DNA of 64,000 bases from Candidatus Limnocylindrales bacterium (GCA_052038965.1 JBQGDI010000058.1:4248-68247), one strand, 5' to 3'. Counted from the first letter of the stretch, positions 1,883 to 22,444 are shown. Notes: a model not told the origin generated them from the letters alone. Numbers and translations: made by a program.

Positions 1883-2920
1883 ATGTCCACCACGGGCGCG
1901 TCGCCGTCAGGGCCGCCGCTGCTCGATCCGTCGGCATCGGCGGCCGTGGGCCGCTCTCCCCTGCTCCACGCCGCGCTCGCGCTGGTGCCGCCGGAGGCGA
2001 CGGCGGTCGAGCTTGCCACCCGCTTTGCGGCGACCGGCGCGGAGGTCGAGCTGACGATGGCCGCGAGGCTGCTGACCGAGCTGGCGGAGCTGGGCCTCGT
2101 CCGCGTCAGTCGGCGCGAGTCAGATGGCTCGCGATACGTCGCGACGTCGCTCGGCCAGCGGAGCATCGAGGCCGGCGTCCACGGCGACGCGGCCGTGCCG
2201 CTCGAGGAGCTGGAGCGCCTCCGAACCGACCTCCTGTCGACCATCGCCCACGAGCTCCGGACGCCGCTCACCGCGGTCCGGACGAGCGTCGGCCTGCTCC
2301 TCGATCCGGGCGCCGAGCCGACGCCCGAGCAGCACCGCAGCCTGCTCGAATCCATCGAGCGGAACGCGGACCGGATGCAGCGCCTGATCGCCGACATCCT
2401 CGAGCTGTCGCGCTTCCGGTCCGGGAGCGTCGCCCTCCAGCTCCGACGATTCCGCGCCACGGCGCTCGCGGAGTCGGCCATCGCGCTCGTCGAGCCGCTG
2501 GCCGCGAAGCGAGGCCAACGGATCGTGCTGTCGGCCCGGGTCAGCGAGGGGCACGAGGTGTTCGGCGACCGGCGGCGACTGGAGCAGGCACTGCTGAACC
2601 TGCTCGCCAACGCCCTCCGGTTCTCGGCCGACGGCGCCGACGTCCGGGTCGGCGTCGAGGAGCGGGGTGACACGACAGCCTGGATCGTGGCCGACGATGG
2701 CACGGGCATCAGCGAGGCCGACCAGGCCCGGCTGTTCGAGCGGTTCTTCGTCGGTCGCAGCGATCGCTCGGGGCCGCGCGAAGGCGTCGGCCTGGGGCTC
2801 CCGACGGCCCTCGCCATCGCCCAGGCCCATGGCGGTGCGATCGAGGTCGCGAGCGTGCTCGGGATCGGGAGCACGTTCGCGCTCGTCGTCCCGACCGCCG
2901 GACCGGAGGACGAGCCGTGA
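1883..2920 (+). CDS. Cytoplasmic sensor histidine kinase (HisKA + HATPase_c)
   Basis: H-box HELRTPLTAVRTS and the N/G1/G2 ATP-binding boxes. No TM segments. ATGA overlap with the downstream response regulator. Confidence 0.85.
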   Translation: MSTTGASPSGPPLLDPSASAAVGRSPLLHAALALVPPEATAVELATRFAATGAEVELTMAARLLTELAELGLVRVSRRESDGSRYVATSLGQRSIEAGVHGDAAVPLEELERLRTDLLSTIAHELRTPLTAVRTSVGLLLDPGAEPTPEQHRSLLESIERNADRMQRLIADILELSRFRSGSVALQLRRFRATALAESAIALVEPLAAKRGQRIVLSARVSEGHEVFGDRRRLEQALLNLLANALRFSADGADVRVGVEERGDTTAWIVADDGTGISEADQARLFERFFVGRSDRSGPREGVGLGLPTALAIAQAHGGAIEVASVLGIGSTFALVVPTAGPEDEP

Positions 2921-3630
2921 TGAAGATCCTCGTCGTCGACGACGCCCCGGACGTCGTGGAATCGGTGCGCCTCGGCTTCGCCCTCCAATGGCGCGAGGTC
3001 GACGTCCTGGGTGCAGGTTCCGGGGAGGAGGCCCTCGACCTCGTCGAGCGCGAGACGCCCGACGTCGTGCTGCTCGACGTCGGCCTACCCGACCGGGACG
3101 GCTTCGACGTCCTGCGCGAGCTCCGCACGTTCTCGGACGTGCCGATCGTCATGCTCACCGCGCGCGACGACGCCATGGACAAGGTCAAGGGCCTCGAGCT
3201 CGGCGCCGATGATTACGTGACCAAGCCCTTCAACCACCTGGAGCTCATGGCCCGCGTCAGGGCGGTGCTGCGACGGCATGACATGCCACCGCCCGCGACC
3301 CGGGCGCCGTCGTTGCGCTCGGGCGACCTGGAGATCGACTTCGCCCGCCAGGAGGTCAGGATCAAGGGCGAGCGCGTCGAGCTGACGCCCACGGAATACA
3401 AGCTCCTGTACCACCTGGCCAGGAACGCCGGCCACGTGCTGCAGCACGGGACGCTCCTGGCCAAGGTCTGGGGTCGGGAATACGTCGACGAGACCGACTA
3501 CGTCCGGGTCTACGTCCGGCGGCTTCGCGAGAAGCTCGGTGACGACCCGGAGCACCCCCGGTACATCCGGACAGAGCGCCGGCTCGGCTATCGCTTCCTG
3601 AGGCCGGAGGAGGCGCGCGAGCCCTCCTAG
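2917..3630 (+). CDS. OmpR/PhoB-family response regulator
   Basis: Receiver domain (VVDD...LLDVGLPDRDG...K) plus C-terminal winged-helix domain (LTPTEYKLLYHLARNAG...GYRF). Confidence 0.9.
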   Translation: MMKILVVDDAPDVVESVRLGFALQWREVDVLGAGSGEEALDLVERETPDVVLLDVGLPDRDGFDVLRELRTFSDVPIVMLTARDDAMDKVKGLELGADDYVTKPFNHLELMARVRAVLRRHDMPPPATRAPSLRSGDLEIDFARQEVRIKGERVELTPTEYKLLYHLARNAGHVLQHGTLLAKVWGREYVDETDYVRVYVRRLREKLGDDPEHPRYIRTERRLGYRFLRPEEAREPS

Positions 3631-8643: not shown

Positions 8644-9867
8644 TCAGCCGGTGGCCCGGTGCTCCTCGGGCTGCCGGAAGAGCGCGAGGGTCCGCCATGC
8701 CGTCCACCCTCCGGCGAGCGTCATGGCCGCGCAGAGGGCGCGGACGCCCCACCACGGCAGGTCCTTCGCCAGGAACGAGGGCAGTGGCAGGATCAGGTAC
8801 GGCGACGTCGCGACGACGTACCACAGCGTCACGAAGAACATCGTGCTGAGCGCGATGAACGGGCCCCGGAGTGACGGCACGAGGACCGCGAGCGGGGCGA
8901 GAAGCGGGATCGCGCCGTACAGGTACCGCTCGTGGACCCGCGTCGGCACGAAGTACAGAGCCAGCGCGACGAGCGAAGCGACGGCGAACAGGCCAACGAG
9001 GTCACGTCGCCGGCGAAGGAGCAGCAGGCTCCCGCCGATCGCCAGCACCGTCGCCGTCGTACCGACGTAGAGCCACGGTCCGTCGACGGTCTCGAAGCCG
9101 AAGAGCAGGCCCCACGGATTGAAGCCGTAGTGGGAGGCGTATGGATAGCGCCCGAACGTGTCCGCGATGATGGCCCGGTAGCCGAGCGGGTCGAGGCCAA
9201 GTGGCAGCAGCACGATCGCGCCGGTCAGCAGGGCCGCGAGCGCGACGATGGCCGCACGGCCGATCCCGTCAGCCGTTCGCAGCCAACCTGCCACGAGCCC
9301 GACGAGGACCATCGCCGCGACGCCGAACTGGGGCTTGACGAGGCCCGCCAGGGCCGCCAGGGCCCCGGCGGCGACGAGACCGCCCGAAGCCGCGGTGACG
9401 ATCGACACGACCATCGGGAGGGCTCCCATGCCGTCGACCTGGCCCCACGCCGGGCCGCTCAGGACGACCGCGGGATTCAGCAGGTATAGCGCCGCCGCCA
9501 CCGGTCCGCCCCCCGCCCCGGCCAGCCGCCGTCCGACGGCAAACAGGACGGCGCCCAACGCCAGGTCGAACGGAATCGACAGGACCCGGATGGCGGCCCA
9601 CAGGGGCGCACCGTCGAACGCCACGCCGAGCGGCCATAGCAGGTACAGCATCGCTGGGTAGTTCGCGTCCCCGCCGGCCGCGTAGTAGCCCCCGAGTCCG
9701 TGCTGCGCGAGGCCCTCGGCCCACTCCTCGAAGGCCTTGACGTCGCCGCCGTGCCCGGTGCCGAGCAGCCCGACCAGGCGGACGACGAGCGCGGCGGTGA
9801 GCACGACGACGAAGGCCCGCGCATCGTCGGCCGGCGACCACGGGACCCGCAGCCGCGGGAGGGTCAT
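8644..9867 (-). CDS. GT-C-fold integral membrane glycosyltransferase (DUF2029/PMT_2-like)
   Basis: 407 aa with about 10 TM segments. The early periplasmic loop has the D-x-K/FEEWAEG-type acidic motif typical of GT-C mannosyl/arabinosyltransferases. 16 nt downstream of kimA1. Confidence 0.65.
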   Translation of the reverse strand: MTLPRLRVPWSPADDARAFVVVLTAALVVRLVGLLGTGHGGDVKAFEEWAEGLAQHGLGGYYAAGGDANYPAMLYLLWPLGVAFDGAPLWAAIRVLSIPFDLALGAVLFAVGRRLAGAGGGPVAAALYLLNPAVVLSGPAWGQVDGMGALPMVVSIVTAASGGLVAAGALAALAGLVKPQFGVAAMVLVGLVAGWLRTADGIGRAAIVALAALLTGAIVLLPLGLDPLGYRAIIADTFGRYPYASHYGFNPWGLLFGFETVDGPWLYVGTTATVLAIGGSLLLLRRRRDLVGLFAVASLVALALYFVPTRVHERYLYGAIPLLAPLAVLVPSLRGPFIALSTMFFVTLWYVVATSPYLILPLPSFLAKDLPWWGVRALCAAMTLAGGWTAWRTLALFRQPEEHRATG

Positions 9868-9883
9868 GGCCGAGCGGTGGCCG

Positions 9884-12022
9884 TCACCGGGAGCCGGCGG
9901 GGTTCGCCGGGACGTGGTCCTCGGGGTGCTCGCGGCGGTAGGGCACGTTGACCACGACCGTGTACGGCCGTCCGAGGAGGGCCGCCCGCAGCCGCTTCGC
10001 GGACTGGTTGTAGAGGATCCGCTCCCACCAGCTCTTCGCGACGTATTCCGGGATCACGACGAACGTGATCGGGGCCTCCTTGTCGGCCGGCCACGCCCGA
10101 TCGAGGACGTCGAGGTAGGCGAGCATCGGCGCGACGAGCGCGCGATAGGGCGATTCGACGATCACGAGCGGCACGTCGGGAATCTGGCGCTCCCAGCGCT
10201 CGCGAACCCTGGCCGCCTCGTCGGGCTCGTCGGAGATGAGCACCGCGCGGACGTCCGGGGCGATGGATCGCCCGACGTTGATCGCCTGGACGACCGCCCG
10301 GTTGATGCCCGGGATCGGCACGATCGCCCGCTCCTCCCGTCGCGGTGCCGGGATCCTGGCGTCGGGCTGGATCGCCAGCTCCCGCGAAGAGGCGGCGTAC
10401 TGCCGGTGGATGAACAGCATCAGCCCGACGAGGATCGGGATGATGACCGCGACGATGAGCGAGGTCGGCGCCTTCGCGACGAGCACGACCACGAACACCA
10501 CGCTCGTGAGTCCCGCCCCGAAGGCGTTGATGCCCAACCGCCATTGCCAGCCCCGTGACCGTTCAGCCAGCCAGTGGCGGACCATGCCGACCTGCCCGAT
10601 CGTGAAAGCCAGGAACACGCCGACGGCGTACAGCGGGACGAGCGCGGTCGTGTGGCCACCGAACAGCACCACGAGCGAGATCGCCGCCACGCTCAGGATC
10701 ACGATCCCGGACGTGAACGCCAACCGATCGCCCCGGAAGCTGAACTGGCGTGGCATGTAGCCGTCGCGGGCGAGGATCGCGCCGAGGCGCGGGAAGGCGT
10801 TGAACGACGTGTTGGCGGCGAGGAAGAGGATCAGCGCGGTGAACGTCTGGAACAGGTAGAAGCCGATCGAGCCGTCACCGTAGGCGACCGCCGCGACCTG
10901 GCTGACGACGGTCTTGGGCGTCGGATGATCGATGGGCACGACTCCGAAGTTCGCGGCGACGAATGTGATCCCGATGAACAGCGTCCCCAGGAGGATCGCC
11001 ATCGCCGTCAGCGTCGCCGCGGCGTTCCGCGACTCCGGCGGCTTGAAGGCCGGGACCCCATTGGCGATCGCCTCGGTTCCGGTGAGGGCGACCGAGCCGG
11101 ACGCGAATGCGCGGAGCACCAGCAGCGCCGTCACGGCCTGCAGCGGCTCGTGCGCGCCGGGCAGGGGCGATGGCGGCATCTGGTGCTCGCCGAGGACGAC
11201 GATTCGGAAGGTCCCGATCGCGATCGCGAGCAGCGCGGACCCGACGAACAGGTACGTCGGGATGGCGAAGATGTTGCCCGATTCGCGGAGCCCGCGGAGG
11301 TTGCCGATCATGATCAGGATGATCGCGACGACCCCGATCTCGACCCGGATGTCTGTGAGAGCCGGGACCGCGGAGATGACCTGCTCGATGGCCGACGAGG
11401 TCGATACCGCGACGGTCATGACGTAGTCGACGAGCAGTGCGGCGGCCACGACGAGCGCCGTGATACCCGGCAGGTTCGCCTTGGCCACGGCGTAGTCGCC
11501 GCCGCCGGACGGGTACGCGTAGACCTCCTGGCGATAGCTGATCGACACGACGGTGAGGAGGAAGCCGATCGCGATCGCGACCGGCAGGCTCAGGAACAGC
11601 GCGCTCGCTCCGGCCAGGACGAGGACCCGCAGGATCTCCTCCGAGGCGTAGGCCGAGGAGCTGATCGCGTCCGAGCTGAAGATCGCGAGGGCCTTGACCT
11701 TCGATAGCCGCTCGGTGATCTCCTCGTGGATCGAGAGCGGGCGGCCGAACAGCATGCCGCGGACTCGGGCCAGCATCCGTCCGAGCCCGGTGCGTGGCGC
11801 CGAGGCGGCCGGCTTGGCGATGAGGGTGCCCTCGCCGCCGTAGCGGAAGTACGCCGCGTGGGGCCGTTCGACCCGAACGCGGCGGTCGCCGAGCTTGCGG
11901 CCCTTGAGCGAGCCGCCGGACGAAGGTGGGGTGTCGCTCACCGTGGGCCGCGGCGGGCGCGCAATTGCATCCGCGAAGGATCGCACGCGCGGCCCGGGGT
12001 CGCATGCGCCACGGCGTCGCAT
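9884..12022 (-). CDS. kimA: KimA-family K+ importer (APC superfamily with C-terminal cytoplasmic domain), paralogue 1
   Basis: Start at ATG 12022 (MRRRGACDP...), 15 nt after the fur stop; the ORF extends upstream in-frame to 12556. Motifs KALAIFSSDAISSSAYASEEI, YRQEVYAYPSGGGDYAVAKANLPG, NLRGLRESG, AFASGSVALTGTEAIANGVPAFKPPESRNAA and C-terminal YNQSAKRLRAALLGRP match my recollection of B. subtilis KimA (YdaO). Confidence 0.85.
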   Translation of the reverse strand: MRRRGACDPGPRVRSFADAIARPPRPTVSDTPPSSGGSLKGRKLGDRRVRVERPHAAYFRYGGEGTLIAKPAASAPRTGLGRMLARVRGMLFGRPLSIHEEITERLSKVKALAIFSSDAISSSAYASEEILRVLVLAGASALFLSLPVAIAIGFLLTVVSISYRQEVYAYPSGGGDYAVAKANLPGITALVVAAALLVDYVMTVAVSTSSAIEQVISAVPALTDIRVEIGVVAIILIMIGNLRGLRESGNIFAIPTYLFVGSALLAIAIGTFRIVVLGEHQMPPSPLPGAHEPLQAVTALLVLRAFASGSVALTGTEAIANGVPAFKPPESRNAAATLTAMAILLGTLFIGITFVAANFGVVPIDHPTPKTVVSQVAAVAYGDGSIGFYLFQTFTALILFLAANTSFNAFPRLGAILARDGYMPRQFSFRGDRLAFTSGIVILSVAAISLVVLFGGHTTALVPLYAVGVFLAFTIGQVGMVRHWLAERSRGWQWRLGINAFGAGLTSVVFVVVLVAKAPTSLIVAVIIPILVGLMLFIHRQYAASSRELAIQPDARIPAPRREERAIVPIPGINRAVVQAINVGRSIAPDVRAVLISDEPDEAARVRERWERQIPDVPLVIVESPYRALVAPMLAYLDVLDRAWPADKEAPITFVVIPEYVAKSWWERILYNQSAKRLRAALLGRPYTVVVNVPYRREHPEDHVPANPAGSR

Positions 12023-12036
12023 TCGCCGCGCGAGAT

Positions 12037-12504
12037 TCAGCGGTCGCGACAGGCCTCGCAGCGGCCCTCGATCGACAGGTGCTCGAGCGAGACCGCGAAG
12101 CCACGCCGCCGCTCGAGGTCCTCGACGAGGGCCACGAGCTCGGATGGCGCCAGGTCCCAGCGTCCACCGCAGGCGGAGCAGACGAGGTGACCGTGCGTGG
12201 CGGATGGGCGGACGTGGAACTCGGTCCGACCGTCGGGCCCGTGGGAGTGGCTGACCAGCCCGAGCTCCTCGAGGACGTCGAGCGTCCGGTAGACCGTCGA
12301 GGGCGTCGTGGACGGATCGATCTGGCGACAGCGATCGACCAGCGTCGCGCCCGTCACGTGGCCGTCGACGCGAGCCAGGACGTCGAGGATGACGCCCCGC
12401 TGGGACGTCCAGCGCAGCCCTCGCTCGTGGAGGCGCCGACGCACCTCCGCCCACCGATCGCCGGGGATCGAGGGCAGCCGACGCGTCGCAGAGCCGGCCG
12501 TCAT
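12037..12504 (-). CDS. Fur-family metalloregulator (candidate Nur/Zur-type)
   Basis: Winged helix plus metal-site cysteines/histidines (RWTSQRGVILDVL...TVYRTLDVLEELGLV...HGHLVCSACG...GRCEAC). Start ATG 12504 overlaps the NiCoT stop as ATGA. Confidence 0.8.
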   Translation of the reverse strand: MTAGSATRRLPSIPGDRWAEVRRRLHERGLRWTSQRGVILDVLARVDGHVTGATLVDRCRQIDPSTTPSTVYRTLDVLEELGLVSHSHGPDGRTEFHVRPSATHGHLVCSACGGRWDLAPSELVALVEDLERRRGFAVSLEHLSIEGRCEACRDR

Positions 12505-13457
12505 GCCCCCAGCCCGAGGCCCCTGAGCCACTCGTCGATCGACGGCAGCCGGGCATCGAGGCCGAGCAGGAAGACCGTGCCGATGACCAGGCTGAAGGTG
12601 CCGGCGACGACGCCGATCACGATGTAGATCCGCTGCCGAAGGCGGCTCGCGATGAAGCCGGTCGCGGTGATGAGGACGACGATCGAGTTCGCGATCAGCA
12701 GCCCGACGATGAACGCGACCATCATCGGGATCCCGAGGCCGTGCTGGGCGGCGCCGCCGATCGCGGCGATGAGCAGGACCTGCGTCCCGGTCTCGGCGCC
12801 GATGCCGTGGATCAGGCCGACCCCGAAGGCCGTCTTCGGGCCGTACGAGCTCATCTCCATCGGGTCGACGTGCTCGTGGCCGTGGAGGCGCGCCTGGAAC
12901 CGGCGCCAGGCGTAGCGAGCCGAGTCGAAGACGAGCATCCAGCGGCTCCGCAGCCGGAACGCGACGCCGTGCCGGGCGTACTGGTAGAGCGAGACGAAGA
13001 CCCAGATCCCGAGAAGGAGCAGCGTCAGCCCGACGATCGGGCCCATGACCTGGTCGACCCAGTCCGGCAGGATCGCCCCGAACAGCAGAGCAAGCAGGCC
13101 GAGGACGGCGACGACGGCGGCGTGGCCCAGCGCGTACAGCGAACCGAGCAGCAGCGCGCGCTTCTGCTCCTCGACCAGGCGCGGCCTCGGTGGGGCCGCC
13201 GGATGGTCGGCGGCTCCGTGCTCCCCGCCGTGGGCCCGGACCTCGGTCGGGCCGCCGTGGGCGTGTTGATGCGGATGCCGGGCAACGTGGACGGCCTCGT
13301 GGCCGAGCTCCGCGGCATCGGCCGTCGCGGTCGTCGATGTGACGTCGGTGATCGCCGCCAGATGGTCCCAGTCGAAGCCGTGCCGGATCCCCAGCACGAG
13401 CGCCGTCGAGATCAGCCCAAGCGCACCGCCGGTCGCCGCATCGGCCAGGAAGTCCAC
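12501..13457 (-). CDS. NiCoT (HoxN/NixA)-family nickel/cobalt permease
   Basis: Signature HX4DH in TM2 (IRHGFDWDHLAAITD), second motif GLIHGIGAETGTQV, His-rich cytoplasmic loop (HVARHPHQHAHGGPTEVRAHGGEHGAADH). Start set at GTG 13457; the ORF continues to a TTG at 13568, which would overlap kimA2 by 52 nt. Confidence 0.8.
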   Translation of the reverse strand: MDFLADAATGGALGLISTALVLGIRHGFDWDHLAAITDVTSTTATADAAELGHEAVHVARHPHQHAHGGPTEVRAHGGEHGAADHPAAPPRPRLVEEQKRALLLGSLYALGHAAVVAVLGLLALLFGAILPDWVDQVMGPIVGLTLLLLGIWVFVSLYQYARHGVAFRLRSRWMLVFDSARYAWRRFQARLHGHEHVDPMEMSSYGPKTAFGVGLIHGIGAETGTQVLLIAAIGGAAQHGLGIPMMVAFIVGLLIANSIVVLITATGFIASRLRQRIYIVIGVVAGTFSLVIGTVFLLGLDARLPSIDEWLRGLGLGA

Positions 13458-13478
13458 GGCGGCATGATCGCCGTTATC

Positions 13479-13493
13479 GCAACAGGTTGCAAC
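13479..13493. promoter_or_regulatory. Candidate Fur-family (Nur-like) operator: GCAAC-AG-GTTGC palindrome inside TTGCAAC-type repeats, 22-36 nt upstream of the NiCoT start
   Basis: Read directly: ..atcGCAACagGTTGCAACaag.. in the 58-nt kimA2-NiCoT spacer. It resembles the tTGCaa-N5-ttGCAA Nur box of Streptomyces. Confidence 0.4.
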
Positions 13494-13515
13494 AAGGGTC
13501 CCACAATGGCTCGCG

Positions 13516-15573
13516 TCAGCCCGCCGTCGCCTCCGCGGTTGCCCGCTCGCGCTGATACGGCACGTCAACGACGACGGTGTGGGGCCGGCCGAGCAGGGCG
13601 CCGCGCAGCCGCTTCGCAGACTGGTTATAGAGCGCCCGCTCCCACCAGTGTTGGGCGACGAACTCCGGAACCACGACGAACGTCACCGGAATGTCGCCCT
13701 CGGCCGATTCGGCCGCGTCGAGGACGTCGAGGTACGCCAGCAGCGGTCCGACGAGGGCCCGGTACGGTGACTCGACGATCACGAGCTCGACGTCCGGCAG
13801 CTGGCGTTCCCAGCGTCCCCGGACCGCCTCGGCGGCGACGGGATCATCCGTCACGAGGACGGCATGGACATCGCGGCCGATGGAGCGACCGACGTTCACG
13901 GCCTGGACGGCCGCCCGATCGAGGCCGGCCACCGGGACGACGATGCGCTCCCGGCGTCGCGGACCCCGGATCACGACGTCGTCGCGCACGGCCAGCTGGC
14001 GAGCGGTCGAGCGGTATTGCCGGCGAATGAAGAGCATCCCGACGATGAGTGCGGGAATGAGGACCAGCACGACCCACGCGCCGAGCATGAACTTCGCCGC
14101 GGCGACTTCGACCGCGACGACGCCGGTCGTGAGTGCCCCGATCCCATTGATGAGCGCCTTCGTCTGCCACCCCGGGGTGCTCGCCCGGTGACGCCACCAC
14201 CGCCGGACCATGCCGCCCTGGCTGAGCGTGAAGGCGACGAACACGCCCACGGTGTACAGCGGGATCAGGCTCGTCACGCTGCCAGCGAAGCCGATCACGA
14301 GCGCGATCGCGACGATCGCCAGCACGACGATCCCGCCGTTGAACGCCAGGCGGTCGCCCCGGAACTGGAAGACCCGGGGCAGGAACGAGTCGCGCGCCAG
14401 GATGCTCGACAGCCTCGGAAAGTCGGCGAACGAGGTGTTGGCGGCCAGGATGAGCAGCACGGCGGTCGATACCTGGATCACGTAATGGAATGGCGTGCCG
14501 CCGCCCACGAACGCGCGCGTGAGCTGGCTGACGACCGTCTCCTGTTCGCTCGGATCCGGCAAGATCCCGAGCTGGCTCGAGAGGAAGCTCATGCCGAGGA
14601 AGATGGCGCCGAAGCAGGCGCCCATGATCACGATCACTCGAGCCGCATTGCGCGCCTCCGGCGGCTTGAACGCCGGCACCCCGTTGGATACCGCCTCGGT
14701 GCCGGTCAGGGCGACCGAGCCGGAGGCGAACGCCCGCAGGATCAGCAGCAACCCGAGCGGCTCGGCGGCGCTCTCGACCCAGCCGGGCGGTGGCGAATTC
14801 GCCGGCATGGTCCCCGTCGCATAGCGCAGTAGGCCGAAGCCCAGGAGCCCGAGCATCGACGCCAGGTAGACGTAGGTCGGTACGCTGAACACGAGGCCGC
14901 TCTCGCGGACGCCTCTGAGGTTGACGAACGCGATCGCCGCGATGAGCCCGGCGCCGAGAACCACGCGAGCCTCGAACAGCTCCGGCCAGATCGACGTCAG
15001 GGCCGCGACGCCGGCGGCGATCGAGACGGCGACGGTGAGGACGTAGTCGGTCAGCAGGGCCGCCGCCGCGGTCAGGCCCGGCAGCGTGCCGAGGTTGTCG
15101 CTGGCCACGATGTACGAACCGCCGCCGCTGGGATAGGCCGCGATCGTCTGGCGGTAACTGGTGACGACGATGGCGAGGACGACGACGATGCCGATCGTGA
15201 TCGGCATCGTGAGCACCAGCGCCCCCGCGCCGGCGAGGACGAGCACCCGCATGATCTCCTCGGTCGCGTATGCCGAGGACGAGATGTTGTCCGACGCGAA
15301 GATCGACAGGCCGGGCACGACGCCCAGCCGTTCGTGCCATTCCTCGTGGTTCGACAGCGGCCGGCCGAAGAGCAGCGCCCTCAGCCGCGACGCGGCCCGG
15401 CCAACTGGGGTGCGCGGTCGCGAGGCCTCGGGCTTCGCGACCAGGGCCCCTCGTCCGACATACCGGAAGAACGGTTCGTGGGGACGGTGCACCCGGACGC
15501 GTCGGTCGCCGGGCTTGCGACCGGCTCGCGCGGTCGGGGCGGGCGAGGCAGGGCTGGAGTCGGACGCGGGCAT
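13516..15573 (-). CDS. kimA: KimA-family K+ importer, paralogue 2
   Basis: Start ATG 15573 (MPASDSS...GRKPGDRRVRVHRPHEPFFRY). Same motif set as paralogue 1 (SIFASDNISSSAYATEEI, YPSGGGSYIVASDNLG, NLRGVRESG, YNQSAKRLRGALLGRP). Confidence 0.85.
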   Translation of the reverse strand: MPASDSSPASPAPTARAGRKPGDRRVRVHRPHEPFFRYVGRGALVAKPEASRPRTPVGRAASRLRALLFGRPLSNHEEWHERLGVVPGLSIFASDNISSSAYATEEIMRVLVLAGAGALVLTMPITIGIVVVLAIVVTSYRQTIAAYPSGGGSYIVASDNLGTLPGLTAAAALLTDYVLTVAVSIAAGVAALTSIWPELFEARVVLGAGLIAAIAFVNLRGVRESGLVFSVPTYVYLASMLGLLGFGLLRYATGTMPANSPPPGWVESAAEPLGLLLILRAFASGSVALTGTEAVSNGVPAFKPPEARNAARVIVIMGACFGAIFLGMSFLSSQLGILPDPSEQETVVSQLTRAFVGGGTPFHYVIQVSTAVLLILAANTSFADFPRLSSILARDSFLPRVFQFRGDRLAFNGGIVVLAIVAIALVIGFAGSVTSLIPLYTVGVFVAFTLSQGGMVRRWWRHRASTPGWQTKALINGIGALTTGVVAVEVAAAKFMLGAWVVLVLIPALIVGMLFIRRQYRSTARQLAVRDDVVIRGPRRRERIVVPVAGLDRAAVQAVNVGRSIGRDVHAVLVTDDPVAAEAVRGRWERQLPDVELVIVESPYRALVGPLLAYLDVLDAAESAEGDIPVTFVVVPEFVAQHWWERALYNQSAKRLRGALLGRPHTVVVDVPYQRERATAEATAG

Positions 15574-15605
15574 GAGGGCGCGATGTGGCCGCCGCGATCC
15601 TTTGG

Positions 15606-17648
15606 TCAAGCGGATGCGCTGGCCGCGGCAGCCGGGCGCTCGCCGCGTCGATATGGGGCATCGACGACGACCGTCTGCGGGCGGCCCAGGAGGGCGCGGC
15701 GGAGTCGGGCGGCCGACTGGTTGTACAGCAGCCCGTCCCACCAGCGCCGAGGCGCGTACTCTGGCAGCACGACATAGGTGAGCACGGCCGCGCCCGCCGG
15801 CTGGCCTTGGTCGAGCAGGTCGAGATACCGGAGCAGCGGATCGACGAGCACCAGCGACGGTGTCTCGATGAGGTCGAGAGGGACGTCCGGGATGCGGTCG
15901 CTCCAGTCGGACCGCATGGCCAGGGCGGCGGCCCGGTCGTCCGAGACCAGGACGGCTCGGACGTCGGTGGCGAGCGACCGGGCGATGTTCTCCGCCTGGA
16001 CGGCCGCACGATCGATCCCGGGCACCGGCACGATGGCCCGCTCCCGTCGGTGCGGCGGTTCGATGACCGCGTCGGCGGGAATGGCGAGGCGGGCCGCGGA
16101 CGCCCGGTACTGTCGGTTGATGAACAGCATCATGCCTACCAGGGCCGGGATGAGGATCACGACCAGGTAGGCACCACCGAAGAACTTCTCGTAGACGACG
16201 ATGGCCAGGACGACGATCGTCAGGATCGCCCCGAGGCCGTTGATGCCGAGCCGGAGCCGCCACCCATCCCCGCGCACCCGCAGCCAGTGCCGGACCATCC
16301 CGACCTGGGACAGCGAGAAGCACACGAACACGCCGACCGCGTACAGCGGGATCAGGAGCGTGGTCGTGCCGGCGAAGAGCGCCACGAGCCCGGCCGCGAT
16401 GGCCGCCAGCAGCACGATCCCCCACGAGTAGGCGAGGCGGTCGCCGCGGAAGCTGAATTGGCGCGGCATGTAGCCGTCGATCGCGAGCAGGTTCGCCAAC
16501 CGTGGGAAGGCGTTGTACGAGGTGTTCGCGGCGAGGAACAGGATCAGCATCGTGGCGACGAGGAACAGCGCGTGGAGGGGCGTGCCGAATCCGTAGACCG
16601 CCCCCGCCACGAGCGAGATGACCGACGGATAACCGCCGACCGACGGCACGACGGCATACGCGATTGCGACGACCGAGATCCCGATGAAGATCACGCCCAG
16701 GAGGACTGCCATGGCGGTCATCGTGTTTGCGGCGTTGCGGGATTCCGGCGGCTTGAAGGCCGGCACGCCGTTGGCAATCGCTTCCACGCCAGTCAGCGCG
16801 ACCGACCCGCTGGCGAACGCCTTGAGGAGCAGCACCAGGGCGAGGGGCTCGAGCCCGAACGATTCGGCGTTCGGCTGCGCCGGCAGCGGGCTGGTGGTCC
16901 CGGTGGCGATGTTGAGGCCGCCGAGGACCACGATGCCGAGCGCCAGCGAGACGAACACGTACGTCGGGACGGCGAAGATGTTCCCGGACTCCCGCAGCCC
17001 CCGCAGGTTCGCGATCGTCATGAGGCTGATGACGATCGCGGCGATCAGGACCTTGTGGGAGCCCGCGGCCGGCGCGAGCGAGGCGAGCTGATCGAGGGCC
17101 GACGAGGTCGACACGGCAACGGTCATGACGTAGTCGATCAGGAGCGCTGCGGCCGCAACCAGGCCCAGGAGTGGGTTGAGCTCCGTTCGGGCGACCGCGT
17201 ACGCTCCGCCGCCGTTCGGGAAGGCCTTGCAGACCTGCCGATAGCTCAGGGCGACGATCGCGAGCAGCAGCGCGATCGCGATCGAAACCTCGATCGATGC
17301 GAACAGCGCAGCCGCACCGGCCAGGACGAGGACCCGCAGGATCTCCTCCGAGGCGTAGGCCGAGGAGCTGATGGCGTCCGAGCTGAAGATCGCGAGGGCC
17401 TTGATCTTGGAGAGGCGCTCGCCGATCTCCTCGTGGATCGACAGCGGCCGACCGAAGAGGATCGCCCGGACCCGGGCGAGCATCCGACCGGGGGCGGTGC
17501 GCGGCGCCGAGGCAGCCGGGCGCGCGACCAGCGTCCCTTCGGCGCCGTACCGGAAGAAGGGCTCATGGGGCCGCGCGACGCGAACGCGTCGGTCCCCGGG
17601 CTTTCGGCCGCGACGCGGCCGCGCGAGTCCTGCTTCGACGGTCTCCAT
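15606..17648 (-). CDS. kimA: KimA-family K+ importer, paralogue 3
   Basis: ATG 17648 (METVEAGLARPRRGRKPGDRRVRVARPHEPFFRY); an alternative GTG lies at 17666. About 75 % identical to paralogue 1 over the N-terminal 100 aa. Confidence 0.85.
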   Translation of the reverse strand: METVEAGLARPRRGRKPGDRRVRVARPHEPFFRYGAEGTLVARPAASAPRTAPGRMLARVRAILFGRPLSIHEEIGERLSKIKALAIFSSDAISSSAYASEEILRVLVLAGAAALFASIEVSIAIALLLAIVALSYRQVCKAFPNGGGAYAVARTELNPLLGLVAAAALLIDYVMTVAVSTSSALDQLASLAPAAGSHKVLIAAIVISLMTIANLRGLRESGNIFAVPTYVFVSLALGIVVLGGLNIATGTTSPLPAQPNAESFGLEPLALVLLLKAFASGSVALTGVEAIANGVPAFKPPESRNAANTMTAMAVLLGVIFIGISVVAIAYAVVPSVGGYPSVISLVAGAVYGFGTPLHALFLVATMLILFLAANTSYNAFPRLANLLAIDGYMPRQFSFRGDRLAYSWGIVLLAAIAAGLVALFAGTTTLLIPLYAVGVFVCFSLSQVGMVRHWLRVRGDGWRLRLGINGLGAILTIVVLAIVVYEKFFGGAYLVVILIPALVGMMLFINRQYRASAARLAIPADAVIEPPHRRERAIVPVPGIDRAAVQAENIARSLATDVRAVLVSDDRAAALAMRSDWSDRIPDVPLDLIETPSLVLVDPLLRYLDLLDQGQPAGAAVLTYVVLPEYAPRRWWDGLLYNQSAARLRRALLGRPQTVVVDAPYRRGERPAAAASASA

Positions 17649-17732
17649 GGCACCAACGTGCGCCACGGACCCAAGAGGGATCGGCGCTCGACAGCAGCTC
17701 CGACCCTTAAGTTCGCCTCAGGTTTCCGACGC

Positions 17733-18455
17733 TCACCCTTCCGGAGCGCGGATGCGGTAGCCGACGCCTGGCTCGGTGACGATCAGGTCACGGAGCGCGC
17801 CCTCGTGGTCGGCCGCCGCCAGCTTGCGACGGAGCTGGCTGACGTGGACGTACACGTAGCTGTCGGCGTCCTGGTAGGCCGTGCCCCAGACCGCCCGCAA
17901 GAGGCGACCCTTCGTCACGATCCGCCCGAGCTCGCCGAGCAGGACGCGCAGGATCTCGAACTCGCGGGGCGTGAGCTCGACCGTCTGGCCGTCGACGAGG
18001 ACCTCGTGGTTAGGGCCATCGAAGACGAGCGGGCCCACACGAATGCGGCCCTGGCTGTCGGCGGCCGGACCCGGTGATCGGCGCAGGGCGACCCGGAGGC
18101 GCGCGTGCAGCTCGTCGAGGCCGAACGGCTTGGTCACGAAGTCGTCGGCACCGAGCTCGAGGGCCTCGACCTTCTCACGCTCGGCGTAGCGGCCGGACAG
18201 GATCACGATCGGCGTGCCCGCGTCGCGTCGAATCCGCCTGATGACTTCGAGCCCGTCGAGGTCGGGCAATCCCAGGTCGAGCAGCACGACGTCAGGCCGC
18301 GATGCCTCCCAGCGCTCGAGGGCCGTGCGCGCGTCGATCGCCTCGACGGTCCGGTAGCCGCGAGCCCCCAGCTCGCGCAGCAGCGCGCGCCGGGTCTCGT
18401 CGTCGTCCTCGACGACCAGCACGGACGGGCCACCCGGGGGCCGCGGGGGGATCAT
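17733..18455 (-). CDS. kdpE: KdpE-like OmpR-family response regulator
   Basis: Receiver (VLVVEDDDETRRAL...LLDLGLPDLDG...LSGRYAEREKVEALELGADDFVTKPFGLDELHARLRVALRR) aligns closely with E. coli KdpE as I recall it. 4-nt overlap with kdpD. Confidence 0.85.
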   Translation of the reverse strand: MIPPRPPGGPSVLVVEDDDETRRALLRELGARGYRTVEAIDARTALERWEASRPDVVLLDLGLPDLDGLEVIRRIRRDAGTPIVILSGRYAEREKVEALELGADDFVTKPFGLDELHARLRVALRRSPGPAADSQGRIRVGPLVFDGPNHEVLVDGQTVELTPREFEILRVLLGELGRIVTKGRLLRAVWGTAYQDADSYVYVHVSQLRRKLAAADHEGALRDLIVTEPGVGYRIRAPEG

Positions 18456-20050
18456 TCCGGCGCGTTGGGCAGCAGCTCCGCCGGCACCGACGCAGCCGGC
18501 AGCAGCAGCTCGATGGCCAGCCCGCCAAGCTCGCTCCGCTGCGCGCTGGCGCGGCCGCCCATCGCCTCGACCAGCCCACGCACGACGGCCAGGCCGAGCC
18601 CGGTCCCACGCGCCGGGGCCGGGTTGCGCCCGCCGCCGTGATCGCGGTCGCCGATGCGGACGAACGGGTCGAAGATGCGCTCCTGCGCCGCCTCGGGCAC
18701 CCCCGGTCCACCATCCTCGACGATCAGCCGGACCATGCCGCTGTCGTCCCGGGACGCGGTGATCCGCACCGTCGCGGCTGCCGGCGCGAACTTGGCAGCG
18801 TTGTCGAGCAGGTTCAGGAGGGCCTGGCCCAGGAGGACCGGATCGACGCGGACGGCCAACGGTGGGACGTCGATGATCATGGGTCGATCGTGGAGCGGCC
18901 CGCCGAACCGTTCGACCGCTTGGCCGACAAGGTCATCGAGCTCGAACACGTCGACGTCGGCCCGCAACGCGCCGGCCTCGATCCGACCCAGGTCCAACAG
19001 GTTGGCCACGAGCCGGTCGAGGTAGCGGACCTGTCGCTCGATCGCCTCGGCGCTCGCCGCGCGGGCCTCGTCGTCCAGGCCACTCTCCGGGCGGAGCGAG
19101 CCGGCCGCCGCGCGGATCGCGGCCAGCGGGGTCCGGAGGTCGTGCGAGACCAGTTGCAGCAGGGCGCTCTTGAGGGCGTCGCTCTGGCGGGCGATCTCGG
19201 CGTCGCGGGCCTCGGTGGCGAGCCGATCCTGGACCAGCAGCTGGCCGATCTGGTCGGCCGCCGCGCCCAGCAGGCGAGTCGCCGACCGATCGGGCAGGGC
19301 CGCGGATCGATCGCGAAGCGCCCAGATGGAGCCGAGCGCATCGCCGCCGGCCTCGATCCGCACGCGATACGTCTCGAGCGGCGCGGTCGCGGCCATCGAG
19401 CGCCCACCCATCCCCGTGTGCACCCGGACCCAGCGGGCCGGCTCATCGCCGGGCATCCGACGAAGGACCTGGTGGAGCCCCGAGGTCGGCGTGCCGGCCC
19501 CGCGACCAGTCGCGGCCTCGCCGGCCCGGGTCGCGACGCGCTCGGCTGCGTCGTCCTCTCCGAGGGCGATCCAGAGCGAGCGCATCTCGGTTGCGGCCCG
19601 CAACAGCTCGGCGAGATCCGGCAGCGCCTCGCGGGTCGAAGATCGCGTCGCGAGCGCCCGGCTGAGCTGGAACAGCTCGCGGGCCTCGCGCTCGCGGGCC
19701 GTTGCCGTGACGGTCTGGGCCCGCTGGAGCGCCGCCAGCTGACCGACGACCAGGCCGACGAACAGGAGCAGGGCGAGGCTCAGCCACTCACCCGGGTCAC
19801 TGATCGTGAACGTGTGGTACGGCTCGGTGAAGAGGTAGTCGTAGGTGGCGATCCCCATGACCGCCGTGGCCACACCGCCCGCGGTCCCGGACAGGAGGGC
19901 CGCCGCGACGACCGCGATCAGGTAGACGGGCGAGGCGTTGGGGATCCCTACGCGCTCCTCGAGCAGCCAGACCAGGGCGGTGGCCCCGACGAGGGTCGGC
20001 AGGGCCACCGCGAGCAGTCGCGCGACCCGGGCGACGCCCAGCTGCGGCAC
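18452..20050 (-). CDS. kdpD: Truncated KdpD-like sensor kinase (DUF4118 4-TM + GAF-like + HisKA + HATPase_c; lacks the N-terminal KdpD and Usp domains)
   Basis: GTG start. Membrane module GIPNASPVYLIAVVAAALL...YDYLFTEPYHTFTI resembles KdpD DUF4118. H-box SHDLRTPLAAI. No 350-aa N-terminal domain and no upstream kdpFABC. Confidence 0.8.
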   Translation of the reverse strand: MPQLGVARVARLLAVALPTLVGATALVWLLEERVGIPNASPVYLIAVVAAALLSGTAGGVATAVMGIATYDYLFTEPYHTFTISDPGEWLSLALLLFVGLVVGQLAALQRAQTVTATAREREARELFQLSRALATRSSTREALPDLAELLRAATEMRSLWIALGEDDAAERVATRAGEAATGRGAGTPTSGLHQVLRRMPGDEPARWVRVHTGMGGRSMAATAPLETYRVRIEAGGDALGSIWALRDRSAALPDRSATRLLGAAADQIGQLLVQDRLATEARDAEIARQSDALKSALLQLVSHDLRTPLAAIRAAAGSLRPESGLDDEARAASAEAIERQVRYLDRLVANLLDLGRIEAGALRADVDVFELDDLVGQAVERFGGPLHDRPMIIDVPPLAVRVDPVLLGQALLNLLDNAAKFAPAAATVRITASRDDSGMVRLIVEDGGPGVPEAAQERIFDPFVRIGDRDHGGGRNPAPARGTGLGLAVVRGLVEAMGGRASAQRSELGGLAIELLLPAASVPAELLPNAPE

Positions 20051-20114
20051 ATGTCGATGCTAGGCCCTCGCGGTGCGATGGTCCGCGGCGCGCCGGGAAC
20101 GGAGCGAACCGAGA

Positions 20115-20366
20115 TCAGTGGCCCTGGCCGGCCTCGCGGACCTGGTCATCGGACGCCGAGCGGCCCTCGCGGTGGCCGTCCGGCGTGGCGCCGCGCTCGG
20201 ACTCGGGCACGGGCCCTCGCGCCGGCCCTGGCTGTGTGGCCACCGCGGACACTCGCCGGTCGCGGCGGCCGAGCCCACCCGGGATCGTCTCGGTTGCACG
20301 CTCGGGCTTGCGGCCGATGTAGGCGCCGGCGTCGCGGCGCGGCTCGGTTTGGCGTCGATCGGTCAT
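20115..20366 (-). CDS. Small hydrophilic hypothetical protein (83 aa) immediately upstream of kdpD
   Basis: ATG 20366 with GGGAGG at 6 nt spacing. Highly charged sequence MTDRRQTEPRRDAGAYIGRKPERATETIPGG..., 64 nt upstream of the kdpD start. Confidence 0.5.
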   Translation of the reverse strand: MTDRRQTEPRRDAGAYIGRKPERATETIPGGLGRRDRRVSAVATQPGPARGPVPESERGATPDGHREGRSASDDQVREAGQGH

Positions 20367-20473
20367 GGGTTGCCTCCCGGGTGTCGGATCCAGGCTCCTA
20401 CCCTGGCGCGCGACCCGCTGACGACGGGACGGTCCCGCGACCCGGTGGCTATCGCGCTCGTTGCAGCCCGGAC

Positions 20474-21634
20474 TCAGGCGAAGAGCCGGCCGTGGGCCCG
20501 CATGACCTCGACCAGCCGGTCGTGGGGCAGGCGGTGCGCGACGATCCCGTCCCGGCCGGTCATCGTCTCGGCGGCGACGAGGGCGTTCGCGATCGCCTCC
20601 TCGGTCGCCTCCACGACCGCCTCGAAGAGCGGGTCGAGGGCCGTGTCGACGAGCGCCCGCAGCTCGACGACGCCGTGCATCGCCGGCGGCGCCTCGCCGG
20701 CCGGCAGGCCGCGGTTGCCGGTGGCGAAGGCGATGAACAGGTCGCCCGACGATGTCGCGCCGAGGCCGCCGGTTCGAGCCAGCCCGAGACCGGCCCGCTG
20801 GGCCAGACGAGCACACTGCCCCGGGAGCAGCGGTGCATCGGTCGCGACGACGACGATGATCGAGCCCTGCCGGCCGGGGGCGATGCCTTCGTCGAAGGCA
20901 ATCCCGCGGCGGGGACTCTCCCATGGCGACGGCACCTCGGTGATCGGGATCGCCTCACCGACGGCCACGCCATCGACCCGGAGCAGCCCGCGACGACCGT
21001 AGTTCGCCTGGACCAGGACGCCGACGGCCCAGCCCCCAAGCCCCGGCGGGATAACCCGCGACGAGGTCCCGATTCCGCCCTTGAACTCATGGCACAGCAT
21101 CCCGGTGCCGCCGCCGACGGAGCCCTCGGCCACCGGTCCCGCGCGAAGGTCGGCCAGCGCGGCGTCGACGTGCTCCGGGCGGACGTGCTGGCCGGCGATG
21201 TCCGACAGCCGCCCGTCCCACGTTTCGCCGACCACCGGCAGCGACCAGGAGGCGGAGCCCGGGGTGCGCGCCCGCGTGGCATGGTTGATGAGGGTGTCCC
21301 GGACGATCCCGAGCGAATGGGTGTTCGTGATGGCGATCGGGCTGTGGAGCAGCCCCGTTTCGCGGATCCACTCGAGGCCGGTCATGTCGCCGTTGCCGTT
21401 GAGGATGTGACAGCCCGCGAACACGGGTTCCGTCCAGATGTCGCCGTCGTGCGGATCGACGACCGTGACCCCGGTGCGGACGGGCCCGCGGCCCACGACG
21501 AGCGGCCCCTCGCCCTCGATGATCGTCGCGTGGCCGACTCGGACACCGGGCACGTCGGTGATCGCGTTGTCCGTCCCCGGCCGACCCTCGCCGATCCGGA
21601 TTCCGAGATCACGCGCCCGAGGCCGACCCAGCAT
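20474..21634 (-). CDS. DmpA/OAT-family (peptidase S58/P1) L-aminopeptidase/D-Ala-esterase-like protein
   Basis: ATG 21634 with GAGGG RBS. About 386 aa with GxGxxGS/T-type self-processing region. 8 nt after the MgtC stop. Confidence 0.8.
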   Translation of the reverse strand: MLGRPRARDLGIRIGEGRPGTDNAITDVPGVRVGHATIIEGEGPLVVGRGPVRTGVTVVDPHDGDIWTEPVFAGCHILNGNGDMTGLEWIRETGLLHSPIAITNTHSLGIVRDTLINHATRARTPGSASWSLPVVGETWDGRLSDIAGQHVRPEHVDAALADLRAGPVAEGSVGGGTGMLCHEFKGGIGTSSRVIPPGLGGWAVGVLVQANYGRRGLLRVDGVAVGEAIPITEVPSPWESPRRGIAFDEGIAPGRQGSIIVVVATDAPLLPGQCARLAQRAGLGLARTGGLGATSSGDLFIAFATGNRGLPAGEAPPAMHGVVELRALVDTALDPLFEAVVEATEEAIANALVAAETMTGRDGIVAHRLPHDRLVEVMRAHGRLFA

Positions 21635-21644
21635 CGGGACGCCC

Positions 21645-22325
21645 TCAGTCGGCGTGCGAGCTGGAGAGGATGTCGACGCCTTCGAGGCGGGAGATCTCCT
21701 CGAGGGCGGCGGCGATCGACGCCGGGGTCCGGCCACGGACGGTGAGATCGGCCCGGTACAGGCTCCGGCCCTGGCGCTGGGTCGCAATCGCGCCGATCTC
21801 CAGCTTCTCGCCTCGGAGGATCGCGGTGACCTGTCCCAGCAGGTCCACGCGGTCCATCTGGAGGCGGAGCTGCAGCTCCGGCTGTGCGGTGCCGTGGAGG
21901 CGCTCGGCGAGCGCGTTGATTGGCCACAGGCTGACGAGGATGACCGCCGCCGCGACGGTGGCGATGACATGCTCTCCGGCCCCGGCCGCCATGCCGACCG
22001 CGGAGGTCGCCCAGAGGCTCGCGGCGGTCGTGAGGCCGCGGATGACGATCCCGTCCTTGAGGATCGCGCCCGCACCGAGGAAGCCAATGCCGGACACGAT
22101 CTGGGCCGCGATCCGGGTCGGGTCGATGGGCGCCGCCACGGTCCCGCCTTCGAACCCGTGGGCCGACAGCACGGTGAACAGGGCCGAGCCGAGGGCCACC
22201 AGCATGTGCGTCCGGAGGCCCGCGGGGTGGCCGTGGATCTCCCGCTCGAAGCCGATCCCGAGGCCGAGCAGGCTGGCGATGATGAGCCGGACTGAGAGAT
22301 CGAGCTGGAGGCCGACGTCGATCAT
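21645..22325 (-). CDS. mgtC: MgtC/SapB-family membrane protein
   Basis: N-terminal 4-5 TM MgtC domain (LIIASLLGLGIGFEREIHGHPAGLRTHMLVALGSALFT) plus C-terminal ACT-like domain. Start ATG 22325. Confidence 0.8.
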   Translation of the reverse strand: MIDVGLQLDLSVRLIIASLLGLGIGFEREIHGHPAGLRTHMLVALGSALFTVLSAHGFEGGTVAAPIDPTRIAAQIVSGIGFLGAGAILKDGIVIRGLTTAASLWATSAVGMAAGAGEHVIATVAAAVILVSLWPINALAERLHGTAQPELQLRLQMDRVDLLGQVTAILRGEKLEIGAIATQRQGRSLYRADLTVRGRTPASIAAALEEISRLEGVDILSSSHAD

Positions 22326-22444
22326 CGGCTGGGCCGTCGCGGTCGAGCGGGCTCGTGATGTGCCATCGCAGCATGATGGCGCAGTCGGCCACGGGCCGGG
22401 AGGCCGACACGGAGCCGTCATCTCGATGATCTAGGCTCCCGGGC

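Follow-up and report, generated by a model that had tools for sequence, protein, structure and literature searches.

The window analysed here is a 64,000-nucleotide (nt) stretch of DNA from a Candidatus Limnocylindrales bacterium (GCA_052038965.1, JBQGDI010000058.1:4248-68247). The G+C content was 72%. It encodes three homologues of KimA, the K+/H+ symporter of Bacillus subtilis, and each carries an N-terminal extension that KimA lacks. The region is probably a K+-uptake locus of the Limnocylindria (Chloroflexota), with three KimA-type symporters that carry a regulatory N-terminal module, two-component control, and specialised copies. We infer the K+ uptake from sequence. All of the genes relevant to the KimA-like locus are on the minus strand. 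In the order of transcription they are a small open reading frame (ORF), a kinase, a regulator, paralogue 3, paralogue 2, a NicO-like gene, a Fur-family gene, paralogue 1, and a gene for a 407-residue membrane protein. The three paralogues and their extensions are as follows.

15606..17666, minus strand: KimA-like K+/H+ symporter paralogue 3, 686 residues from GTG 17666 (Pfam, PDB sequence search, AlphaFold, Foldseek)
17454..17621, minus strand: N-terminal extension of paralogue 3, residues 16-71 (alignment, AlphaFold)
13516..15573, minus strand: KimA-like K+/H+ symporter paralogue 2, 685 residues, the most diverged copy (ORF map, Pfam, alignment)
15367..15534, minus strand: N-terminal extension of paralogue 2, residues 14-69 (start-codon map, alignment)
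9884..12022, minus strand: KimA-like K+/H+ symporter paralogue 1, 712 residues from ATG 12022 (ORF map, Pfam, alignment)
11747..11914, minus strand: N-terminal extension of paralogue 1, residues 37-92 counted from ATG 12022 (alignment, G+C content at third codon positions [GC3])

The three ORFs had been reported in an initial annotation of this DNA, and they were recovered at the same positions on the minus strand. Their description there as tandem holds for paralogues 3 and 2, which are separated by 32 nt. It does not hold for paralogue 1, which is set apart from paralogue 2 by the NicO-like and Fur-family genes. Paralogue 3 is read here from GTG 17666 (686 residues); NCBI calls ATG 17648 (680 residues; P0271, 100% identical). 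Paralogue 2 is an NCBI protein of 685 residues (P0465). The start of paralogue 1 is uncertain and may be ATG 12022, GTG 11986, or GTG 11941. Its orthologue in a related locus (L081) has 682 residues, which favours a short leader, as from GTG 11941.

The extension was defined by alignment with KimA. Residues 4 to 604 of B. subtilis KimA (6S3K) align with residues 65 to 673 of paralogue 3, and this was the sole match in a phmmer search of PDB sequences (E = 1.2e-119). Relative to KimA, the extension of paralogue 3 adds about 60 residues, and about 50 of them are conserved. The initial annotation was right that such an extension exists and that the three copies share a basic motif in it, and it put the length too low, at about 45 residues. 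Its statement that B. subtilis KimA lacks the motif was also borne out, as the KimA alignment begins after it, at residue 65 of paralogue 3. The common segment is GRK(P/L)GDRRVRVxRPH(E/A)(P/A)(F/Y)FRYxxxG(T/A)L(V/I)A(K/R)PxAS(A/R)PRTxxGR, followed by a helix that matches the first residues of KimA. Identity over the N-terminal motif was 75.5% between paralogues 1 and 3, close to the earlier estimate of 75%. It was 62% between paralogues 1 and 2 and 70% between paralogues 2 and 3.

Paralogue 2 lacks a methionine where "MLARVR" would begin, and the next in-frame start that follows the motif falls within the conserved core. Because no internal methionine precedes the conserved FGRPLS block, the extension of paralogue 2 must be translated. 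Initiation at an internal start after the motif was rejected on this start-codon map of paralogue 2. Among orthologues, conservation starts abruptly at (M/V/L)IGGRRPLxGRK, and nothing upstream of it is conserved. The orthologues themselves begin at MIGGRRPL, immediately ahead of the motif. Across 117 Limnocylindria copies, conservation reaches at least 90% in many columns of the extension, a level as high as that of the first transmembrane segment (TM1). The ratio of nonsynonymous to synonymous differences per site (pN/pS; 1,749 pairs) was 0.41 in the extension, 0.26 to 0.57 in the transmembrane segments, and 0.81 in the 23 upstream codons; with synonymous sites close to saturation, all of these ratios underestimate the constraint. 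The GC3 of the extension was 0.77 to 0.92. Judged by the start-codon map, the abrupt onset of conservation, pN/pS, and GC3, the extension is translated and under purifying selection. The initial annotation had allowed that the segment might be untranslated or that orthologues might lack it. Neither was the case, and the motif is present in all orthologues.

All 117 of the related copies that were examined have the motif, as do hundreds of proteins in the databases. With the first 117 residues as the query, a search returned 388 proteins, and the best 120 contain the motif. In an exhaustive search of representatives at 50% identity, about 25 to 30 of the best 150 align from query residues 9 to 24. 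The other representatives among the best 150 begin at query residues 57 to 70, as KimA does. The degenerate form of the motif, from the motif profile, is G-x-x-(P/L)-G-(D/N)-x-x-V-R-h-x-R-P-x4-F-(R/K)-(R/Y)-x3-G-x-L-x-A-T. The distance from the end of the motif to the TM1 anchor is fixed and is always 26 residues. Every significant match to the module in a six-frame translation of 1.45 Mb of related DNA precedes TM1 of a KimA-like protein, and none was found elsewhere in that DNA. Three of these matches sit in frame-shifted or mutated copies. The named carriers are Limnocylindrales, Ktedonobacteraceae, Chloroflexia, Dehalococcoidales, and Candidatus Dormibacteria; the module of the Ktedonobacteraceae is of the variant form. 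Conservation across the whole family, a prospect raised in the initial annotation, was not found: the motif is confined to one clade, and most relatives start like KimA. Because all carriers fall in one clade of a tree built from core columns only, the distribution indicates a single origin of the extension, which would be a synapomorphy of one KimA subfamily in Chloroflexota and Dormibacterota.

An AlphaFold model of paralogue 3 was built on 150 homologues and had a mean predicted local distance difference test score (pLDDT) of 88.5. The extension had a pLDDT of 66 to 84 in this full-length model. It contains predicted strands at residues 17-19, 26-28, 38-40, and 46-48, a helical turn at residues 50-53, and an amphipathic pre-TM1 helix at residues 58-71. 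The isolated 63-residue segment, modelled with its own alignment, gave the same secondary structure with a mean pLDDT of 71. We are moderately confident that the extension is predicted correctly as a small beta-module. The residues that are near-invariant across classes are, in the numbering of paralogue 3, G20, G24, R29, G44, L46, A48, and P55. The extension gave only a chance HTH_32 match in Pfam at E ≤ 10. Its profile had no match among PDB sequences, and all Foldseek matches of the isolated model had E > 2. A Tat-signal reading was also tried by eye and rejected, as the pattern does not fit and no hydrophobic h-region follows it.

We infer that the module works through TM1a in regulation or gating. 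It would be a cytoplasmic regulatory element that acts on this gating helix. It may dock on the cytoplasmic face or on the cytosolic domain. It may plug the inward vestibule, as the N-terminal peptide of KCC transporters does. Binding of an anionic ligand or lipid by a near-invariant arginine (R29 of paralogue 3) is a further possibility.

The extension might instead be only a topogenic or stabilising "positive-inside" tail that holds the N-terminus in the cytoplasm or aids membrane insertion and does not regulate. It lies directly before TM1, and its net charge is +8 to +11 in the three copies, compared with an average of +2.6 in relatives without it; both points fit such a tail. However, topogenic tails require charge and not sequence, and the noncharged residues G20, G24, P33, F38, Y40, G44, L46, A48, and P55 (paralogue 3) are at least 90% conserved across classes. 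The 26-residue spacing to TM1 is fixed, the same four strands are predicted in the full-length protein and in the isolated segment, and the extension is not required for correct insertion of B. subtilis KimA and most relatives, which lack it. We consider a purely topogenic tail unlikely.

The extension could also be a small sensor of a ligand or lipid (cyclic di-AMP [c-di-AMP], another nucleotide, polyphosphate, or an anionic phospholipid) through which the transporter would receive an input additional to that of the C-terminal domain. Its many arginines, including the near-invariant R29 in a predicted strand, are consistent with this, as is the restriction of the module to a transporter whose homologue is regulated by a nucleotide. 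Pfam, PDB sequences, and Foldseek, however, showed no likeness to known binding domains. A PilZ-type reading (RxxxR...DxSxxG) was rejected by eye as a pattern misfit. Nor is a second site needed, because most of the canonical C-terminal c-di-AMP site is intact. A sensor of this kind seems quite improbable to us, and action on the gating helix remains our preferred reading of the module.

The identity of the proteins behind the module was assessed by sequence, structure, and key residues. Identity to B. subtilis KimA over the full-length alignment was 38 to 40%. Foldseek of the paralogue 3 model gave target TM-scores of 0.85 (8B70), 0.89 (8B71), and 0.81 (6S3K), with E values of 1e-30 to 1e-35. 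The next matches after the KimA entries were NKCC, NCC, and KCC transporters and amino-acid transporters. The architecture is complete in each copy and consists of a LeuT-fold domain with 12 transmembrane segments followed by a C-terminal cytosolic (PPAT-like) domain. All three paralogues retain KimA residues D36, Y43, D117, Y118, T121, S125, T230, E233, N237, and Y377 unchanged. Among relatives, these positions are identical in 262 to 263 of 263, except for N237 (235 of 263). In KimA, D36, Y43, T121, S125, T230, and Y377 serve K+ coordination or gating, E233 serves proton coupling, and D117 serves trans-inhibition (PMC6994465, PMC10284832). E233 and D117 are identical in the three copies and in all 263 relatives. 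Because the K+/H+ residues of KimA are unchanged in all three, the copies are very probably working K+/H+ symporters. The PDB sequence search, Foldseek, and the key residues thus agree with the initial description of the proteins as KimA-like. It had also raised a shift of substrate to Rb+ or NH4+; this has no support, because the residues of the K+/H+ site are identical in all three copies. Among the c-di-AMP contacts, R337, P479, N580, Q581, S582, and R587 are kept in the three copies. Further positions of the pocket show V457 as S or T and F568 as Y or F. Inhibition of the paralogues by c-di-AMP is plausible on these residues.

The proteins might be amino-acid or polyamine permeases and not K+ transporters. 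AA_permease_2 was the only Pfam family above threshold in the three paralogues, no NCBIfam model covers them, and database labels read "amino acid transporter" or "APC family permease". KimA, however, belongs to the same superfamily and is labelled alike in the PDB, and the alignment is full length, includes the KimA-specific cytosolic domain, and keeps all of the K+/H+ residues. Weak K_trans matches in Pfam and the KdpD/E-like gene context also speak against a permease, which we regard as very improbable.

At least 7,964 relatives were scored, and 240 of them were retrieved. Nearly all of the relatives P0272 to P0509 carry the label "amino acid transporter" or "APC family permease" from their sources, yet every KimA K+/H+ residue is kept in them. 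On this pattern of labels and residues, K+ uptake is systematically under-annotated in Chloroflexota. Thousands of Chloroflexota "amino acid transporter" entries would then be K+ importers, which matters for the metabolic reconstruction of uncultured lineages.

The paralogues were compared with the 80 closest loci, nearly all of which are labelled as Candidatus Limnocylindrales, Limnocylindria, or Chloroflexota metagenome-assembled genomes (MAGs). The genome studied here, from soil or groundwater, is thus one of the Chloroflexota, and not of the Actinomycetota or Firmicutes. Full-length identity was 61% between paralogues 1 and 3, 55% between paralogues 1 and 2, and 54% between paralogues 2 and 3. 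Paralogue 2 is the most diverged copy, as first described. The order kinase-regulator-paralogue 3-paralogue 2-NicO-Fur-paralogue 1 recurs in two other MAGs (L007/L081 and L012), and the counterparts are 77 to 80% identical. Orthologues of the individual copies are found in the same order at 73 to 80% identity in L007/L081, L012, L003, L005, and L010. Other MAGs are without paralogue 2 or without the NicO-Fur pair. Two or three KimA-like copies were present in 37 of the 80 loci. In a neighbour-joining tree, paralogues 1, 2, and 3 fall in three separate clades, each with its orthologues. More distant Limnocylindria often have a tandem pair with members in the paralogue 1-like and paralogue 3-like clades. 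The duplications are old, as orthologues of each individual copy are present in other MAGs. Their age and the retention of the copies argue for specialisation rather than dosage; the initial annotation had left the choice between the two open. That the copies are redundant recent local duplicates kept for dosage, with an N-terminal similarity owed to recent common ancestry, is suggested by the adjacency of paralogues 3 and 2 and by the motif in all three, but it is exceedingly improbable with copies only 54 to 61% identical, orthologues 73 to 80% identical in other MAGs, the motif in far more distant classes, and a tree that places the copies in separate clades and contradicts a recent duplication.

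The three specialised copies would differ in affinity or regulation and not in substrate. At the start of TM1 in the paralogue 2 clade, GV(V/I/L)PGLSIFASDN replaces SKVKALAIFSSDA, beside D36. This change affects both residues that flank the K+-binding aspartate (D36 of KimA) and may be the basis for a different affinity. Read over a longer segment of this clade (window 15250-15330; L003, L007, L010, and L012), ERLGV(V/I/L)PGLSIFASDNISS replaces ERLSK(V/I)KALAIFSSDAISS.

Two loci in the comparison set carry other taxon labels. L055 (DATNFQ010000269.1, "Patescibacteria group") and L071 (DATNBW010000102.1, "Verrucomicrobiia") have KimA-like loci that fall inside Limnocylindria clades at 63 to 65% identity. 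Both contigs are probably mis-binned.

A two-component pair lies upstream of paralogue 3.

18452..20050, minus strand: sensor histidine kinase, DUF4118-HisKA-HATPase_c, 532 residues (Pfam, NCBIfam)
17733..18455, minus strand: OmpR-family response regulator, Response_reg and Trans_reg_C (Pfam, NCBIfam)

The regulator gene overlaps the kinase gene by 4 nt. The orthologue of the kinase in L081 has 526 residues and an identical domain set. A kinase and regulator adjoin a KimA-like gene in about 30 of the 80 loci, and such loci group together in the tree. Elsewhere among the ORFs of the 64-kb window there were no Kdp, Trk, or Ktr components, and KdpA, KdpB, and KdpC domains were found neither in those ORFs nor in L081. 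The best NCBIfam models of the two proteins, KdpD and KdpE, and the gene context point to K+-responsive induction. The pair would switch the transporters on when K+ is scarce.

A second two-component pair, with a HisKA/HATPase kinase and an OmpR-type regulator, is present at 1883-3630 on the plus strand, about 14 kb from the first. It adjoins a thymidine kinase gene and an EamA transporter gene.

Several results weigh against the overall reading of the locus as a K+-uptake system with a regulatory module and two-component control. The confidence of the extension model is only moderate. Some c-di-AMP contacts are replaced in the paralogues (H579 by Y, F565 by L, V, or I, and W592 by G). The net charge of the cytosolic domain was -0.3 in carriers of the extension and 0.0 in noncarriers (p = 0.78, small sample); electrostatic docking of the module on that domain was rejected, as the domains of carriers are no more acidic than those of noncarriers. 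The kinase matches KdpD over positions 403-886 of 895 with 207 bits, and the cut-off is 1123. The regulator reaches 169.9 bits with KdpE, for which the cut-off is 325, and 168.6 with MtrA. About half of the related loci are without an adjacent two-component pair.

The other genes of the locus are as follows.

20115-20366, minus strand: small ORF of 83 codons (protein-level conservation)
12501..13493, minus strand: NicO-like (HoxN/NicT-type) metal transporter with a His-rich loop (Pfam and NCBIfam, both below cut-off)
12037..12531, minus strand: Fur-family metal-responsive regulator (Pfam FUR, E = 4e-20; NCBIfam)
8644..9867, minus strand: 407-residue polytopic membrane protein (no Pfam or NCBIfam match)

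The NicO-like gene matches Pfam NicO (E = 1e-5) and NCBIfam NicT (E = 6e-10). Its start is uncertain and lies at 13493 or 13457. It is conserved in L003 to L005, L007, L010, and L012, and the Fur-family gene overlaps its end. The NicO-like gene is not part of the K+ function. In more distant MAGs (L020, L034, and L061), the NicO-like and Fur-family pair is found in another arrangement, just upstream of the kinase-regulator-KimA cluster. The gene for the 407-residue membrane protein lies 16 nt downstream of paralogue 1 and may be cotranscribed with it. It is conserved downstream of the paralogue 1 orthologue in L001, L002, L005, L009, and L010.

The 83-codon ORF (MTDRRQTEPRRDAGAYIGRKPERATETIPGG...) occupies the 423-nt gap between the S58 peptidase and kinase genes and has no Pfam match. 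It is conserved upstream of the kinase in L001, L002, and L004 (72 to 77% over 47 residues by tblastx). The corresponding gap in L081 is just 55 nt. An S58 (DmpA-type) peptidase gene (20474-21670) and an MgtC-family gene (21645-22421), both on the minus strand, lie upstream of the kinase, and their order is the same in L081. A search of the whole window with Rfam at gathering thresholds gave no match. At E ≤ 1, positions 9700-20600 gave nothing but one chance microRNA match and no c-di-AMP riboswitch of the ydaO type. Promoter and terminator scans of the locus found no site above chance.

The KUP/HAK/KT family as a whole has KimA as its structural model. To our knowledge, KimA is known to be regulated in only two ways, by c-di-AMP at the C-terminal domain and by K+ through trans-inhibition. 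More tentatively, the basic beta-module may be an undescribed regulatory domain of the KUP family, either an autoinhibitory or gating element or a sensor of an anionic ligand or lipid, and the two-component pair may be an N-terminally reduced KdpD/KdpE-type system that was rewired from the Kdp ATPase to KimA-type symporters in Chloroflexota. We regard this combined proposal as possible rather than probable. If it is true, a conserved extra module joined directly to TM1a, the gating helix, would add a further and so far unstudied point of control, and would do so in a large clade of bacteria that are abundant in soil and groundwater. We found no literature on KimA proteins of the Chloroflexota or on any N-terminal module of KimA or KUP transporters; literature coverage was incomplete, and the result amounts to no more than absence of evidence. 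An N-terminal region is not discussed in either of the two papers on the structure of KimA (PMC6994465, PMC10284832).

A functional analogue of the module is the N-terminal autoinhibitory peptide of the eukaryotic transporters KCC2 to KCC4 (PMC7732191). Both are cytoplasmic N-terminal segments before TM1 of an APC/LeuT-fold cation transporter, both are conserved across a subfamily, and both are placed to reach the inward-facing vestibule. The analogy is functional only. The KCC peptide is an extended loop, whereas a small beta-module is predicted here, and there is no similarity of sequence or fold.

The two-component pair resembles KdpD/KdpE, which controls kdpFABC. Shared features are a kinase with DUF4118, HisKA, and HATPase_c and overlapping genes beside genes for K+ uptake. 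The kinase here has only these three Pfam domains and lacks the KdpD N-terminal domain (PF02702) and the Usp domain, and the scores of both proteins are far below the equivalog cut-offs. kdpFABC is absent from the 64-kb window, and the neighbours of the pair are KimA-type symporters. The locus suggests that KdpD/E-like sensors can govern secondary K+ transporters.

The nearest system is KimA (YdaO) of B. subtilis (6S3K, 8B70, 8B71), a K+/H+ symporter that belongs to the KimA subfamily within the KUP family. The proteins share the LeuT-fold transmembrane domain, the C-terminal cytosolic domain, the K+/H+ residues, and most c-di-AMP contacts. Unlike B. subtilis KimA, the proteins described here carry the extra N-terminal module of about 60 residues and are encoded as three paralogues in one locus. 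In place of the ydaO riboswitch upstream of B. subtilis kimA, this locus has a two-component pair.

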